Source of the DNA: an uncultured Christensenella sp.
GTDB taxonomy: Bacteria > Bacillota > Clostridia > Christensenellales > UBA1242
Direction: 5' to 3'
Assembly (NCBI GenBank): GCA_949296965.1
Contig: CASFQL010000021.1
Span: 15,247 to 79,246 of the forward strand
DNA: 64,000 nucleotides
Each line of letters opens with the position of its first letter. Within the stretch, counting starts at the first letter, position 1. Below the pieces are notes generated by a model. It was not told the origin of the DNA, searched no databases, and saw nothing but the letters and a program-made list of their open reading frames with translations. The position numbers and the translations under genes were made by a program. Below, one piece after another: positions 5,256 to 64,000 of the stretch.

Positions 5256-5347
5256 AATACTCCTATTTTTTTTCATACTAACATATTTAACATAAACTTG
5301 TAAAATGTTATCAAATGTTTTATTTTTACTACAACTAAACTATATAC

Positions 5348-5443
5348 GGGGCTTTGTGCCAAAAGTGAAACTTTTGTGCGAAATTTTAACTTGTTAAAAT
5401 TTCGCAGTAAAAATTTTATAAAATTTTTACTGCACAAAGCCCC
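5348..5443 (+). repeat. Four-way-junction intergenic repeat, copy A (forward)
   Basis: Closing stem GGGGCTTTGTGC/GCACAAAGCCCC encloses three hairpins: CAAAAGT-gaa-ACTTTTG, TGCGAAATTTTAA-cttg-TTAAAATTTCGCA, and GTAAAAATTT-tata-AAATTTTTAC. It lies between the divergent ATPase and acnX starts. Confidence 0.9.
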
Positions 5444-6904: not shown

Positions 6905-7366
6905 ATGGACGAGAAAAAAGTTTTAAAATTTAAAGGTAGAGTCATTGCCCCTGGTTCACTTGTAGGAGAAGCCATTGTTTCTAGACAAGGTGTAAATACT
7001 CTTGCTACTTTTCAAAAAAGCGCTTTAAAAAATGCTAAACAAGTGTATAGTTCTGACCAAAATAATCCAGATTTATATAAAAAGAATTTGACAGGAAAAA
7101 TTTTATGCTTACCTCAAACGATAGGTTCCACAACGGGCGGACTTGTTATCCAAACTATTTGCTCTATGGGAATTAATCCAAGTGCAATGTTATTTTCACA
7201 AGAAATTGACTCCCTTGCCTGCTCAGGTATTATTCTTGCTAGAAATTGGGAAAATAGTAAAATTATTGCAATAGACAAACTTGGTAGTAATTTTCTTAAA
7301 AAAGTCGATAGTGGAGATACTATTGAAATTATGGAAGATGGAACTATATTAGTTACTAAAAAATAA
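6905..7366 (+). CDS. Aconitase X small (swivel) subunit, DUF126 family
   Basis: 153-aa ORF, translationally coupled to the DUF521 gene. The GKILCLPQTIGSTTGGLVIQT and INPSAMLFSQEID segments match the DUF126 pattern (G.ILv.P...GSt.G; aP.AiI..e.d). Confidence 0.82.
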   Translation: MDEKKVLKFKGRVIAPGSLVGEAIVSRQGVNTLATFQKSALKNAKQVYSSDQNNPDLYKKNLTGKILCLPQTIGSTTGGLVIQTICSMGINPSAMLFSQEIDSLACSGIILARNWENSKIIAIDKLGSNFLKKVDSGDTIEIMEDGTILVTKK

Positions 7367-7460
7367 TTTTAATTAAACTAGTTAAGTTGTTTAGATAAAA
7401 TTGTTTTTATTCACATTTTAGAAATAATTGTGCATAACTCTAATTTTTATATTATAAAAA

Positions 7461-7600
7461 GCCATAGCAAGAAGAAAAATTTATCTTTATTCTTGTATGG
7501 CGACGACTAATCAACATTGTGTGCAAAAATGTTAATTTTTGAATAAGGTTTGCTAAAACTTTATAGTAAAAATTTAGTATAATTTTTTACAGCACATAAT
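7461..7600 (+). repeat. Four-way-junction repeat, copy B (diverged, with extra 5' hairpin and CGACGAC linker)
   Basis: An upstream hairpin GCCATAgCAAGAA...TTCTTGTATGGC (7461-7501) and CGACGAC precede the core at 7516-7600. The core has closing stem ATTGTGTGC/GCACATAAT (G7519-T7597 wobble) and hairpins AAAAAT-gtta-ATTTTT, ATAAGGTTT-gcta-AAACTTTAT and GTAAAAATT..AATTTTTTAC. Confidence 0.7.
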
Positions 7601-7616
7601 TTATATTTTAGGAATT

Positions 7617-7770
7617 TAAGGTAAAAGAGAAAATTTATTTTCATTTTTACTTAACGACGACAAATTCAAATTTTGTGCCAAAAGTGTTAACTTTTGAATT
7701 AAAATTTATCTTAGTTAAATTTTAATAGTTGTTATTTTGTTCTACAAAATTACAACAACACATAATTTAT
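7617..7770 (+). repeat. Four-way-junction repeat, copy C (diverged, with extra 5' hairpin and CGACGAC linker)
   Basis: This unit is a tandem partner of copy B with a period of about 156 bp. A hairpin at 7617-7653 and ACGACGAC precede the core at 7668-7770, which holds CAAAAGT-gtta-ACTTTTG, ATTAAAATTTA-tcttagt-TAAATTTTAAT and GTTGTTATTTTG..CAAAATTACAAC. The closing stem AAATTTTGTG/CACATAATTT has one mismatch. Confidence 0.62.
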
Positions 7771-7814
7771 ACCATATAAAAAATTAGAATATATTAATAA
7801 GTTATTTTAAATTT

Positions 7815-7917
7815 GGACTTTGTGCTAAAAGGGGAGGGCCCCTTTTTTAAGTGAAGTTTTAGAAAAATTCTAAAACTTCACGGTAAAATTTTATTAAAAT
7901 TTTACTGCACAAAGTCC
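7815..7917 (+). repeat. Four-way-junction repeat, copy D (forward; P2 replaced by a GC-rich terminator-like hairpin)
   Basis: Closing stem GGACTTTGTGC/GCACAAAGTCC. P2 is AAAAGGGG-aggg-CCCCTTTT followed by TT. P3 is GTGAAGTTTTAGAA..TTCTAAAACTTCAC and P4 is GTAAAATTTT-att-AAAATTTTAC. Confidence 0.9.
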
Positions 7918-8060
7918 TTTTTTATTTTATAGTTGTAATATATAAAACTTATTTTCTTAATCACACAAATTAAAGAGCAAAATAGGCTCATAAACTTCAA
8001 TTAAACTTAACAAACAAGATAATCATATAATGAATTAGATAAGATTCGTAGGAGTTAAGA

Positions 8061-9149
8061 ATGTGTAATAATTGCTATAATAATTGCATTTGTGAAAATA
8101 AAAACAATAAAAAAATTGTTGAAAAAATAATAAATGGTAGCGTTGGCCCAACAGGACCTACGGGCCCTAGGGGTGAAGATGGATTAATTGGAGCAACAGG
8201 TCCAACAGGGGCAACAGGTCCAAGGGGAGAAAATTTTGGACCAACTGGTTCAACGGGACCAACAGGAGCGACAGGACCCACTGGACCACAAGGAATTAAC
8301 GGCATTTCAGGTCCTACGGGACCAATCGGTCCAACGGGTGCAACAGGTGCTACGGGTGCAAGTGGTCTAATGGGTGCAACGGGAGCAACAGGGCCTACGG
8401 GACCTACGGGGGCAACAGGGCCAAGAGGAGCCAATGCAAATAGTGTATTTAATCCTTATTCAATTTTTGTAAGAAGTAATACTGTTGGAGGAAATGGAAC
8501 ACAATCTAATCCCTTTCCTTCAATAGAAGATGCTTTGAATGTTGTCACTAATAATGGAACAATTGAAGTTTATGATGGGACATATCCTGTTGATACAACT
8601 ATTCCACTTAATAAAAATAACATAACATTAAGGGCAAAACCAAACGCCGTAATCTTATTAACTTCAAGTACTCCTGCCTTGCTAGTCAGCGGAAACGGCA
8701 ATAAAATTGAAGGTTTTACTTTTACAAGTGACAATGCTTACCCCGTAGAATTTATTCAAGTTGCTGGTCAAAATCATGTTATTAGAAACAATAAGATTTA
8801 TGGACCTACTCAATCAGGTAGTTCTGACACTTGGATTACTAATAGAGGTATTGTTACACAAGGCAACGCAAGTGATATTTGGATAGATAGCAATATTCTC
8901 TATTCTTTAAGGCAAAGTGGATATTTTAATCCAAATTCAACAGGCTATGTAACAAGAAATACAACATTTAATACTAGGGGTTGGGTTGTAGATAATGCTT
9001 TGTTTGAATTTTCTGGCAATTCTTGGGGCGACCCAGAAAATGCTGTCGACATTGCGCTTTTAAGTGGAACAACTAGCGGAGTGCCTTATAGCAACATAAC
9101 AAACTTACAACAAGATAATAGCAATGCAAATATCTCAGACCAAAGATAA
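8061..9149 (+). CDS. Collagen-like triple-helix repeat protein (BclA-like) with Cys-rich N-terminus and C-terminal beta-helix-like domain
   Basis: 362-aa ORF with an AGGAG RBS. About 95 residues are G-X-Y repeats ([13 protein letters not shown]...GATGPRG), interrupted once at GENFGPTG. The N-terminus is [14 protein letters not shown]. The C-terminal region ([28 protein letters not shown]) resembles a right-handed beta-helix. Confidence 0.88.
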
Positions 9150-31262: not shown

Positions 31263-31455
31263 ATTTTTACTAATATAGTTGTAGTAAATATTATTATTCT
31301 CTTAGAATTCCACTTTTATATTTAATATGTTAAAGCAGATAAGAAATTATCTAAACAAAAACACCAAACTAAAAATGCTTAAAATTTTAGAAAATAAATC
31401 TTTATAATATGAATATAATTCATCTAATAATCATACAATAAAATAAAATTAAGTG

Positions 31456-54205: not shown

Positions 54206-54973
54206 TTATGTTTTTTTAAAATTAATAAAATTTATTAATACTAAAAGAAAATAATTAGAAATGAAAAAGGAAAGAACAAAAAACATTGTGCATATAAAGT
54301 TTATATCTCCATAATTAAAATTTAGATTAATAATGTAACATAAAGATATTAAAAACACTAGACAAAATATTTTAAAAATTGTAAATAAAATCTTATTAAA
54401 ATTAATAAAAAAATTAAAAAAACTGAAACTAAATTTTGAATAATTGATTTTTCTTAATAACTTTTTTTGTTGCTTAGTAAGTTTTTCTTTATCATTTATT
54501 TTACTTAAATTTTTATTTTCTTGTAACAATTTTTTATTTTTATTAATTATTTTTTCTTCTTTATTTTTTCTATTATCTTTTTTGATTACTAAACTAATAT
54601 TCTTTGTTTTGCTATCTATATTTTTCTGTTTTTTATTTTTACTAAAATAAAGAAAAAGTTTTTGTATTAAACTATTTTTTATCCTTTTTTGTTTTGTTTC
54701 TTTTTCATTTTTTAGTAATTTTTTTGCTAAATAATTTTTATTCTTTTTTATTTTTTTTGTTTTTACTTCGTTTATATTTTTCCCTGTTTGTTCCTTAAAC
54801 TTTTCTAATAAATTATTAAGTTTATTTTTTGTTTTTTCTTTTCTAAAAGAAAATTTTTTAAACATTAAATTAAAAAGTTTACAAAAAAAATAAAAAATTA
54901 ACCCTGAAACAAATCCCAAATAACAATAAAGCCACATTACTGCAGGTTGATTAAAAGTTGAAAATAAAATCAT
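54206..54973 (-). CDS. yabQ: Spore cortex biosynthesis protein YabQ-like, with a long Lys-rich insertion
   Basis: It overlaps the yabP stop (ATGA). The ends are hydrophobic (VMWLYCYLGFVSGLIFYFF; ILFTIFKIFCLVFLISL...) and flank about 140 aa of K/N/E low complexity. Assignment rests mainly on synteny. Confidence 0.6.
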   Translation of the reverse strand: MILFSTFNQPAVMWLYCYLGFVSGLIFYFFCKLFNLMFKKFSFRKEKTKNKLNNLLEKFKEQTGKNINEVKTKKIKKNKNYLAKKLLKNEKETKQKRIKNSLIQKLFLYFSKNKKQKNIDSKTKNISLVIKKDNRKNKEEKIINKNKKLLQENKNLSKINDKEKLTKQQKKLLRKINYSKFSFSFFNFFINFNKILFTIFKIFCLVFLISLCYIINLNFNYGDINFICTMFFVLSFFISNYFLLVLINFINFKKT

Positions 54974-55260
54974 TTGAACATTCTCTTAAAAAAATTTGAT
55001 TTTTCGCCTGTTTGACCTGTATATTTAATGTCCGTTACTAGTCCGCTTGCCTCAACTAACCCTTGATTTACATCTAACTTTGTTATTGATAATTGCTCTC
55101 CACAAATTATTACATTTGAGCCTGCTACTTTTAATTGTAATTTACTTTCGTTACTCTCGTAAACCCTTTCAACTCCGCTTATTTTCAACTCTTTTCTATT
55201 ATTTAATATGACTTGACTATTATCAAACTTTTTTTCTTGGACATTTTCAATATTTTCCAT
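54970..55260 (-). CDS. yabP: Sporulation protein YabP
   Basis: 96 aa. The K.L.ISGV..V.S......L....G...I.G..L....L....G......G....I.Y pattern and the C-terminal NFFKRMFK match B. subtilis YabP (..GFFSKLFK). Confidence 0.85.
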   Translation of the reverse strand: MENIENVQEKKFDNSQVILNNRKELKISGVERVYESNESKLQLKVAGSNVIICGEQLSITKLDVNQGLVEASGLVTDIKYTGQTGEKSNFFKRMFK

Positions 55261-61875: not shown

Positions 61876-62970
61876 TCATAATATGCGTTCTATTTGAGCA
61901 TTTTTAACACTAAAAACTGCATCATTTTGTGAAATCTTTTTAAAGTATTTAGTTGTTGTAATTATTGTTTGATAATCTTTTATATAATTAATTAAGTTGT
62001 TACACCTTTTTGTATCAAGTTCACTTAAAACATCGTCAAGTAATAAAATCGGTTTTTCTCCAATATTTTTTTCAAAAATTGAAAGTTCTGCTATTTTAAG
62101 TGATAGAGTTGCAAGTCTTTGCTGACCTTGTGAGCCATAAATTCTAATATCAACATTATTGACTTTTATTTCTATATCATCTCTATGCGGACCTATTGAA
62201 GTAAAACCTAAATCAAAATCAGTTTTTAATTTTTCTTTATATAATTTATATATTTTATCTTTTATTTTTTCCTTACTTTCAAAATTTATTCCTTGATAAC
62301 TAATTTCTAAGTTTTCTTTGTTATTTGTTATAAAAGAGTGAGTTTGTTTTGCCGGTTCTTTAATTTGCTTAATAAAGTCTAATCTATAAAAAATGATTTT
62401 ACTTGAAACATCTGCAAGTTGACTATCCCATAAATCAACTGTTTCTTGTAAACTCTCAATGCTTTTAGATTGTTTTAAAAGTTTATTTCTCTCATCAAGT
62501 AATTTTTCATATTTACAAAGAAGATAAAAATAATTTTTATTTAACTGACTTATATCAATGTCCATAAATCTTCTTCTATCACTTGGACCATCTTTAATTA
62601 AACCAATTTCATCGGGCGCAAAGTATACAACTGGCATCTCGCCAATTAAATCACCAATTTTTCTAATTGACAAGCCATTTATTTTTACTGCCTTGTTTGT
62701 TTCTTTATTTAAAACTGTTTCTATCTCTTGTTCAAAGTATTTTTTTTGTAGAGTTATTTTAACTCGTGCAATTTTACTATCCCAATTAATAAGTTCCTTT
62801 TCTTTTTTAGTTTTTGGCGACCTACCTATACTAGATAGATAAATACTTTCTAAAAAATTAGTTTTTCCCTGTGCATTATTTCCTTTAAAAATATTTAAGC
62901 AAGGGGCAAGTTTTACTAAACAAGTTTGATAATTTCTAAAATTTTTTAAACTAACTTCTTTTATATACAT
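61876..62970 (-). CDS. recF: DNA replication and repair protein RecF
   Basis: 364 aa. MYIKEVSLKNFRNY, the Walker A GNNAQGKTNFLES, the signature GSQGQQR and the Walker B LLLDDVLSELD are present. Confidence 0.95.
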   Translation of the reverse strand: MYIKEVSLKNFRNYQTCLVKLAPCLNIFKGNNAQGKTNFLESIYLSSIGRSPKTKKEKELINWDSKIARVKITLQKKYFEQEIETVLNKETNKAVKINGLSIRKIGDLIGEMPVVYFAPDEIGLIKDGPSDRRRFMDIDISQLNKNYFYLLCKYEKLLDERNKLLKQSKSIESLQETVDLWDSQLADVSSKIIFYRLDFIKQIKEPAKQTHSFITNNKENLEISYQGINFESKEKIKDKIYKLYKEKLKTDFDLGFTSIGPHRDDIEIKVNNVDIRIYGSQGQQRLATLSLKIAELSIFEKNIGEKPILLLDDVLSELDTKRCNNLINYIKDYQTIITTTKYFKKISQNDAVFSVKNAQIERIL

Positions 62971-63178
62971 ACTTATTAAAATAGTAACACATTTACACTA
63001 AAATTAAAAGAAATTTTTATTTTTTAGTGTATTTTTAATAAAAAAATATTTAAAAAAGTTTGTAAGTATTGCATAAATTTATAATTTTTGTTTTTTTGTT
63101 AAATTTACTAAAAATTTATTATTCATTGACATTAAAATATAATTATAGTATTATTATAATGTATTTTATGGGGGTTAT

Positions 63179-64000
63179 ATGGACAGTCTATTAAGTAATT
63201 GGAACGAAGTTCTAAAAGGTATGTCTAAACTTGTTACCGCTGTTAGTTACGATTTGTATATTGAGACACTTGAACCTATAAAAATTGATAATAATAAATT
63301 AATTTTGCTAGCATCGACAATTTCTAACAAAAATCAACTGATGAGGTTACATAAAGACAAGTTGTTAACGGAAGTAAAAAAGTATTTTGAAAATGTTGAC
63401 GATTTAGTAATACTTGACCCTAGCGAAAAAGAGGCTTTTTTAGAAGATATAAAACACGCAGAAGAAGTTTTAGAAGCAAAACAAATATTTAACGACAAAA
63501 ATAAATTGAATGAAAAATACACTTTTGAAAGTTTTGTTGTTGGTAAGAGTAATCAATTTGTTTATGCGGCTTGCCGAAGTGTTGCTGAAAATCCTGGTAA
63601 AAAATACAATCCTCTTTTTATTTATGGTGGGGTTGGCCTTGGTAAAACTCACCTTTTACACGCTATTGGAAACTATGTTAGAAAGACTAGAAAAAATTTA
63701 AAAATTTTATATGTTACTAGCGAACAATTTACAAATGACTATATTCAAGCATTAAAAGCGGATAAAAAAGAGAATGCTAACAAGGCTTTTAGAGATAAAT
63801 ATAGAGATATTGATATTTTAATGGTTGATGATATTCAATTTATTGCAAATAAAAATAGCACACAAGAGGAATTTTTCCATACATTCAACGATTTATATCA
63901 GTTAGATAAACAAATTGTCATTACTTCTGATAAACACCCTAGAAATATGGAAACTCTTGAAGAAAGATTAAGGTCAAGGTTTACAGGAGGACTTATACAA
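63179..64000 (+). CDS. dnaA: Chromosomal replication initiator protein DnaA (5' partial, continues beyond the window)
   Basis: The frame is open from the ATG at 63179 (after GGGGG) to the window end and is absent from the ORF track because it has no stop. It reads [94 protein letters not shown], with the Walker A/B and sensor motifs of DnaA. Confidence 0.95.

Follow-up and report, generated by a model that had tools for sequence, protein, structure and literature searches.

Stacked hairpin-rich units between acnX and a collagen-like gene in an uncultured Christensenella: candidate gene-less integrative modules bounded by a dif-like joint

The 694-nt spacer between the acnX small-subunit gene and a collagen-like gene of an uncultured Christensenella species holds three hairpin-rich units in a row, here called B, C and D. 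Does this cluster serve the downstream gene, as a regulatory leader or an insulator, or does it consist of DNA that has moved in? The stretch of DNA that we analysed (the window, 64,000 nt; G000:C21:15247-79246) belongs to G000, a 1.15-Mb draft genome with 27% G+C in 33 contigs, which are referred to by C-numbers. The acnX small-subunit ORF (6905..7366) and the ORF of the collagen-like protein with GxT repeats (8061..9149) both lie on the plus strand, so that the upstream transcript would run into the cluster; the spacer contains no ORF of 50 or more amino acids. Orthologues of the acnX small-subunit gene are present in 18 of 27 congeners, and in the closest species, G022, a collagen-like orthologue is located directly downstream of acnX. 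The explanation that we favor, and regard as reasonably probable, is that B and C are gene-less integrative modules moved by a Xer-type recombinase, and that D is a separate element, the probable terminator of acnX.

The array formed by B and C begins at a TTTATA hexamer (7446..7451), which we propose to be the crossover (central) region common to target and unit; the hexamer is present at every boundary of units of this kind. Folding and comparison with other units define B as 154 nt on the plus strand (7452..7605). It consists of a degenerate left arm (TTATAAAAAG), a 41-nt head hairpin of type Ha (7461-7501), the linker CGACGAC (7501-7507), a Y-type four-way junction (7516-7600), a right arm (ACAGCACATAA, 7589-7599) and TTTATA (7600-7605). 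Unit C, delimited in the same way on the same strand, is 166 nt long (7606..7771) and comprises a left arm (TTTTAGGAATT), a head hairpin of type Hb (7621-7650), CGACGAC (7655-7661), an X-type junction (7668-7770, with P2 at 7679-7696, P3 at 7698-7726 and P4 at 7728-7756), a right arm (ACAACACATAA, 7755-7765) and TTTATA (7766-7771). Its closing stem, P1, is weakened by a G-to-A change at 7758. All features first described for the cluster, namely the three copies, the 5′ hairpins and CGACGAC linkers of B and C, the spacing of about 155 nt (154-156 nt from B to C) and the GGGG/CCCC core in P2 of D, could be confirmed in the sequence and its folds. Compared with shuffled sequences, single-stranded DNA of B, C and D folds with z = -5.0, -5.4 and -11.3, none of 200 shuffles being as good, and the minus strand of each folds about equally well. 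The frame TTGTGC-N70-100-GCACAA occurs twice in the window as against 0.03 expected.

The original prediction regarded B and C as a tandem duplication. The identities argue otherwise: between B and C, identity is about 77% and covers only 75 nt, whereas a full-length comparison of C with a unit on C17 gives 94.6%, and units on C23, C12 and C18 reach 92-94%. The head of B, for its part, is 90.6% identical to C18:103211-103263, and the whole unit is 78% identical to C21:94442-94579. Since C is far closer to units on other contigs than to B, the pair cannot be described as a local duplication. Moreover, extended units (type 2 in what follows) are not unique to the acnX locus. There are about 25 of them in G000, at no fewer than 14 loci, usually 167 nt long (range 154-167), and two more in the congener G015, which are flanked by TTTATA on both sides and are the only full-length copies among the 24 congeners searched. 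Confinement to this locus, coupled with a simple local duplication, had been named as part of the outcome that would speak against a regulatory role; extended units do occur elsewhere, and the simple duplication fails as well. The idea of modular sub-variants, on the other hand, holds: the heads Ha and Hb combine with the tails X and Y, and all four combinations occur.

Type-2 units follow one order, that is, the left arm TTCTAGGAAGT, head hairpin, AACGACGAC, four-way junction, ACAGCACATAA and TTTATA. They often form pairs or triplets, and all arrays are head-to-tail with one hexamer between units. The genes that they adjoin are unrelated. No strand bias with respect to replication was seen when the orientations of units were compared with the skew signs of their contigs. 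Dispersal over many loci, stacking in a single orientation and exchange of heads and tails are thus apparent from the assembled genome.

How does the spacer look in relatives? In G022, whose AcnX small subunit is 90% identical, the acnX–collagen pair is separated by 135 nt; B, C and D are all absent, and the spacer carries a terminator, GACTGTTA...TAACAGTC followed by T9. A plain terminator directly after acnX recurs among more distant metagenome relatives (85% identity; L273, in which no collagen-like gene lies downstream). Altogether, three related species (G022 and L273 among them) have only a plain terminator after acnX. The metagenome loci around acnX included no conspecific contigs, and neither joints (see below) nor type-1 copies, the family of D, were found in them. 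A MAFFT alignment of the spacer with that of G022 was uninformative in such AT-rich sequence. Comparison with nearly the whole G022 genome revealed further cases: a two-unit array at C12:19692-20030 interrupts sequence that is continuous in G022 (...TATATATGAAAATTTTTTAGTTTT...) and has TATAAA on both sides, and a spacer of 1.1 kb, as against 116 nt in G022, houses a three-unit array. On the level of sequence, these comparisons establish the modules as lineage-specific insertions. The spacer on C10 that holds a type-1 copy besides a three-unit array, and is 116 nt in G022, also contains four to five tandem copies of a unit of about 25 nt (TTTTTATAAGTTAATTATGATA; C10:224810-224930).

What, then, defines the boundary of a unit? 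Between B and C, the minus strand reads AATTCCTAAAA-TATAAA-TTATGTGCTGT (7589..7616), two mismatches away from the canonical 28-bp dif-like core, ACTTCCTAGAA-TATAAA-TTATGTGCTGT on the same strand. The layout of this joint is 11-6-11, with two 11-bp arms and a 6-bp centre. The joint ACTTCCTAGAATATAAATTATGTGCTGT matches dif of B. subtilis (ACTTCCTAGAATATATATTATGTAAACT; PMC3025954) at 23 of 28 positions, and its left arm does so at 11 of 11. On the plus strand, the left-edge site of the array is ...TTTATA-TTATAAAAAG (7446-7461) and the right-edge site is ACAACACATAA-TTTATA-CCATATAAAAA (7755-7782); the arms on the side of the integration target show little likeness to dif. As module ends meet arm to arm, a 28-bp dif-type site is rebuilt wherever two units adjoin or a single unit is closed end to end. 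Similarity scans for the host's own dif gave no unique candidate in G000 or G022, so that the statement that the joint mimics host dif rests on its likeness to the B. subtilis site. According to GC skew, contig 1 of another genome, G183, holds the origin and not the terminus.

The joint extends well beyond type-2 units. In mosaic arrays of other congeners, small modules of different kinds are bounded by the motif ACTTCC[GT]A[TG]AATATAAA[CT]TAT[GA][TG]G. One of these, of 75 nt, is made up only of an arm, a hairpin and a CGACGACGAA linker, and corresponds to the 5′ extension of the original prediction without the junction; others, of 137-157 nt, carry a conserved box of their own, GTTTGAATAAACATCAG. 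Across the family, the joint motif ACTTCCNANAATATAAAYTATRKG was found with at most one mismatch in 27 of 201 genomes, which represent 13 of 58 genera and have at most 18 sites each, while a control search with the reversed pattern produced one hit. Even genomes with a single hit have a module adjoining the joint, and joint-bounded modules elsewhere in the family measure 75-157 nt. Among 185,579 species representatives, exact matches to the joint were confined to metagenome-assembled genomes of related uncultured gut Clostridia, several of them labelled Christensenella or Christensenellales. In a viral collection we found no exact match and no phage parent. An invariant joint next to variable DNA is how a recombination site would look, and just this is seen family-wide, around different small modules. 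In other genera (L170, L172, L171 and L094), modules of 130-157 nt with the box GTTTGAATAAACATCAGTTTTGCT...CAGACAAA end in a dif-like joint; such box modules are multi-copy in several genera of the family, and these alpha modules match no Rfam family.

We infer a Xer mechanism from the architecture of the site, the geometry of the arrays and the lack of another candidate. The stretch 7446-7771 would accordingly represent a head-to-tail array of two different members of a family of gene-less, hairpin-rich integrative DNA modules. Movement would take place by tyrosine-recombinase (Xer-type) exchange within the TATAAA/TTTATA hexamer, the partners being the module's own site and AT-rich pseudo-sites, and the candidate enzyme is the product of the only Xer-like gene found in G000. 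B and C may have integrated one after the other, or may have come from an exchange between arrays. They would now be decaying, as suggested by the two arm mismatches in their joint and the broken P1 in C.

The integrase genes of G000 comprise four of phage type and the Xer-like one, which encodes 355 aa (C15:43311-44378; L059) and lies inside the GC-skew maximum plateau of C15. The best NCBIfam match of its product is XerS, at 200 bits against a cut-off of 267; the scores for XerC and XerD (150 and 144 bits) are also below the cut-offs, and a XerC and XerD pair was not found in G000. Of 27 congeners, 25 have a single copy of the gene, and its flanks in 25 congeners revealed no dif. Upstream of it there is a conserved promoter-like AGTCAACTTTTGTTTTACA motif, and in most congeners (L060-L084) lexA with a Cheo box (TAGAACATATGTTTGAC) is located downstream. 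Several points count against the Xer reading: neither the host's dif nor a XerC and XerD pair was found, the modules are not at the terminus, target arms have little dif likeness and no strand bias was seen. A double-stranded circle of 75-167 bp is physically awkward as an intermediate. In addition, a 6-bp target-site duplication would likewise leave a TTTATA at either side of a unit.

This last point lies at the heart of an alternative in which B and C are non-autonomous MITE-like transposons mobilized by a TTTATA-duplicating transposase, their dif likeness being coincidental or a matter of AT-rich target preference. TTTATA on both sides of single units, the dispersal of units over many loci in a species-restricted manner and the perfect 12-bp terminal inverted repeats of D-type copies would all suit such elements. 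However, the ends of type-2 units are not inverted repeats (about 5 of 10 match), the units of an array always follow each other head-to-tail, separated by exactly one hexamer, and neither the complete identity of the joint's left arm to B. subtilis dif nor the family-wide retention of the joint around differing module bodies is what MITE-like transposition would lead one to expect. Moreover, the sole transposase-type gene found, in a search for Y1 transposases (PF01797), is an IS200 tnpA pseudogene. On this evidence we consider MITE-like transposition unlikely. The pseudogene (L058:547-1008) resides on C28, a short contig of 2.7 kb, and has an in-frame TAA. A link to RAYT or IS200 was also considered and dropped: the only PF01797 (Y1) hit is this broken tnpA, and the GC-rich hairpins that accompany it are unrelated.

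Could the units have spread and stacked without any dedicated enzyme, solely by homologous recombination, slippage and gene conversion, with the joint as a relic of one dif integration? Units are 85-95% alike and could recombine; their heads and tails are reshuffled; and B, C and several other copies have decayed. Such processes cannot, however, insert single units with exact boundaries at new and unrelated sites, and they leave unexplained why 13 genera have kept the joint next to modules that differ. This scenario therefore appears very unlikely, and we return to the favored one, integration by a Xer-type recombinase.

Modules that are bounded by Xer sites and lack a recombinase of their own are already a known kind. 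Xer-exploiting integrative mobile elements, or IMEXs, include CTXphi, TLCphi, VGJphi and gokushovirus prophages (PMC4246890, PMC6744903, PMC7062461). Like the units described here, they have no recombinase of their own, a dif-like 11-6-11 attachment site and head-to-tail arrays with one site between units. In contrast to our 75-167-bp, gene-less modules at no fewer than 14 loci, IMEXs are kilobase-sized phages, satellites and islands with genes that occupy the single chromosomal dif. They also depend on the host's XerC and XerD, whereas G000 has one Xer-like gene and no such pair was found in it. The replication origin region falls inside the window: at about 62750-64000, close to gyrB/gyrA and recF, lie the minimum of the cumulative GC skew of C21 and the start of dnaA. 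Both map to C21 near 78 kb, while the likely terminus is the GC-skew maximum plateau on C15. Some 55 kb separate the B–C array from the skew minimum and dnaA (oriC), and it does not lie at the terminus; for this reason the modules are not IMEXs in the strict sense.

The second comparison is with the plasmid dif (pdif) modules of Acinetobacter (PMC6449649, PMC13141974, PMC12907356), in which many Xer-type sites per replicon likewise bound discrete modules that are shuffled between contexts. Those modules carry genes, reside mostly on plasmids and have alternating (inverse) sites; the units of G000 are non-coding, lie on the chromosome (on contigs with core genes) and have direct sites. At C15:53885-55561, a short-chain dehydrogenase gene (54469-55203) is located between two inverted two-unit arrays (X,Y - gene - Y,X), an arrangement that recalls gene-carrying dif modules and may represent a possible gene-carrying exception. 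Another two-unit type-2 array directly follows a second collagen-like gene (MNCCNCCDNCICP..., with GPT repeats; C23:18708-20136).

Unit D is of a different type. It is a type-1 nested palindrome (7814..7918, plus strand) with a fold of -38.3 kcal/mol and a covariance-model score of 79.3 bits, and it forms a perfect closed four-way junction. P1 (7815-7825/7907-7917) encloses P2 (7827-7846; AAAAGGGG-AGGG-CCCCTTTT plus TT), P3 (7851-7881) and P4 (7882-7906). Regex and covariance-model censuses located about 95 type-1 loci in G000, with a layout built on a 12-bp closing stem, sGrACTwTGTGC/GCACAwAGTyCs, around three hairpins. The termini are perfect 12-bp inverted repeats, and no target duplication is visible by eye in the flanks. 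One strand of the closing stem, AA[CT]TATGTGC, equals the centre-proximal part of the right arm of the joint; type 1 can therefore be described as two inverted copies of this arm around three hairpins. Type 2, in turn, appears to be a head of the 75-nt type fused to a type-1-like junction. G022 has about 7 type-1 copies and other congeners 0-2; in 23 of 27 congeners, the model has no significant match.

As short, intergenic, species-restricted nested palindromes, D and its approximately 95 relatives resemble REP/REPIN, BOX and bcr1-type repeats. Many copies follow genes, where a terminator or stabilizer role is possible, as for those repeats. They differ in their architecture, a four-way junction closed by a stem that pairs two inverted copies of a dif-type arm, and, from REP/REPIN in particular, in that the elements of G000 come with no RAYT-type transposase and no GTAG-type REP head. 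In an alignment of 50 type-1 copies, 22 of 36 pairs show two-sided changes, and paired cells hold 154 two-sided as against 3 one-sided (G-U type) changes. This pattern suggests that the elements are palindromes of DNA more than of RNA.

That the cluster is a structured RNA leader, or a set of small RNA genes, regulating the collagen-like gene could find support in the persistence of the hairpin architecture through exchanges of sequence (Ha/Hb heads, X/Y tails), in the 22 type-1 pairs with two-sided changes and in the orientation bias of type-1 copies relative to genes, but it is highly improbable given that the cluster is absent from the G022 gene pair and L273 has only a plain terminator, that the family is missing in 22-23 of 27 congeners, that both strands fold about equally, that the balance of two-sided over G-U type changes points to DNA palindromes, that no Rfam family matches and that the same units adjoin unrelated genes. 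In the window, only tRNAs reach an Rfam threshold. TD-2 RNA (RF03162) scored 33.2 bits against a threshold of 48.7, for D only; this involves the GC-rich P2 of D, and we read it as chance. Nothing links B and C to the collagen-like gene. With the same gene pair present in G022 without B, C and D, that gene is unlikely to have a dedicated structured leader. We largely abandon the idea of a regulatory leader in favor of stacked mobile mini-modules and a repeat-borne terminator.

The other part of the proposed role, that of an insulator, fits better: D does lie where a terminator or insulator would be expected, with the acnX operon on one side and the collagen-like gene on the other. Moreover, D and the type-1 copies at C21:46419 and C12:19571 lie exactly where G022 has a simple terminator hairpin, with similar sequence downstream. 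Directly after D follow a T6 run (7918-7923) and a -10-like TATAGT box (7928-7933), together spanning 7918..7933. TATAGT forms part of a promoter-like site, TGCACA-16-TATAGT (7906-7933), whose TGCACA lies in the 3′ strand of P1 of D. In G022, a T-run followed by a -10-like TATAAT box is found at the same place. Most likely, judging by these signals, D and its T-run terminate acnX transcription just upstream of the promoter of the collagen-like gene; if D ends the acnX transcript, B and C would therefore belong to the acnX 3′ untranslated region. P2 of D had been described as looking like a canonical intrinsic terminator. As RNA (A4G4-loop-C4T6) it reaches -9.9 kcal/mol, compared with -3.2 for the usual P2 and about -12 for the plain terminators of G022, so the likeness in energy stands; a simple terminator scan did not call P2, or anything else at D. 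D as a whole resembles a Rho-independent terminator in having a strong stem followed by T6 at the spot of the relatives' plain terminators, and P2 is similar. It differs in its size of about 105 nt, its three internal hairpins and its membership in a repeat family.

Of 78 copies tallied across the genome (65 type-1 and 13 extended), 38 are located immediately behind the end of a gene, on the opposite strand with respect to the orientation adopted in the original prediction. Among the 65 type-1 copies, a T-run (at least 5 T in 8) is present at 32 of 52 exits with an incoming gene versus 26 of 78 without one, the background expectation for such a run being 0.17.

Taken more widely, the findings would point to an undescribed class of gene-less, hairpin-rich modules of 75-170 bp, spread through a family of small-genome gut Clostridia, that carry a core site mimicking dif and use the host's single Xer-like recombinase at many AT-rich pseudo-sites and not only at dif, that stack and swap heads and tails, and that in G000 have spawned a palindrome of about 95 copies, built from their arm, with a terminator role at many genes. 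We put this generalization forward tentatively, with somewhat more doubt than confidence. In the literature searched, we found no description of modules with this size, gene-less state, chromosome-wide spread and hairpin architecture. If the mechanism is true, they would be the smallest known elements to exploit the Xer/dif machinery and the first to be scattered through a chromosome and not parked at dif. This raises the questions of how a cell tolerates dozens of dif-like sites and in what form elements of this size recombine, be it as single strands that have folded or within larger arrays. The repeats also account for much of the expansion of intergenic DNA, and of the fragmentation of assemblies, in these abundant uncultured gut bacteria.

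Two further features of type-1 copies deserve mention. In about 20 of them, a T-run on one side is followed by a conserved outward motif, TTTAGTTGTAGTAAAA or TATAGTTGTA (for example, at 5323-5343 on the minus strand, 31276-31292 and 7926-7940), which could be a -10 box with a start region or an extension of the element. The flank motif TAGTTGTAGTA proved too loose as a search pattern, with 963 hits in the genome at 2 mismatches. P2 of type-1 copies exists in two mirror forms, CAAAAGT-GAA-ACTTTTG and CAAAAGT-TTC-ACTTTTG, both of which are common (in the window at 5365-5381, and genome-wide); this looks like loop inversion of a DNA palindrome.
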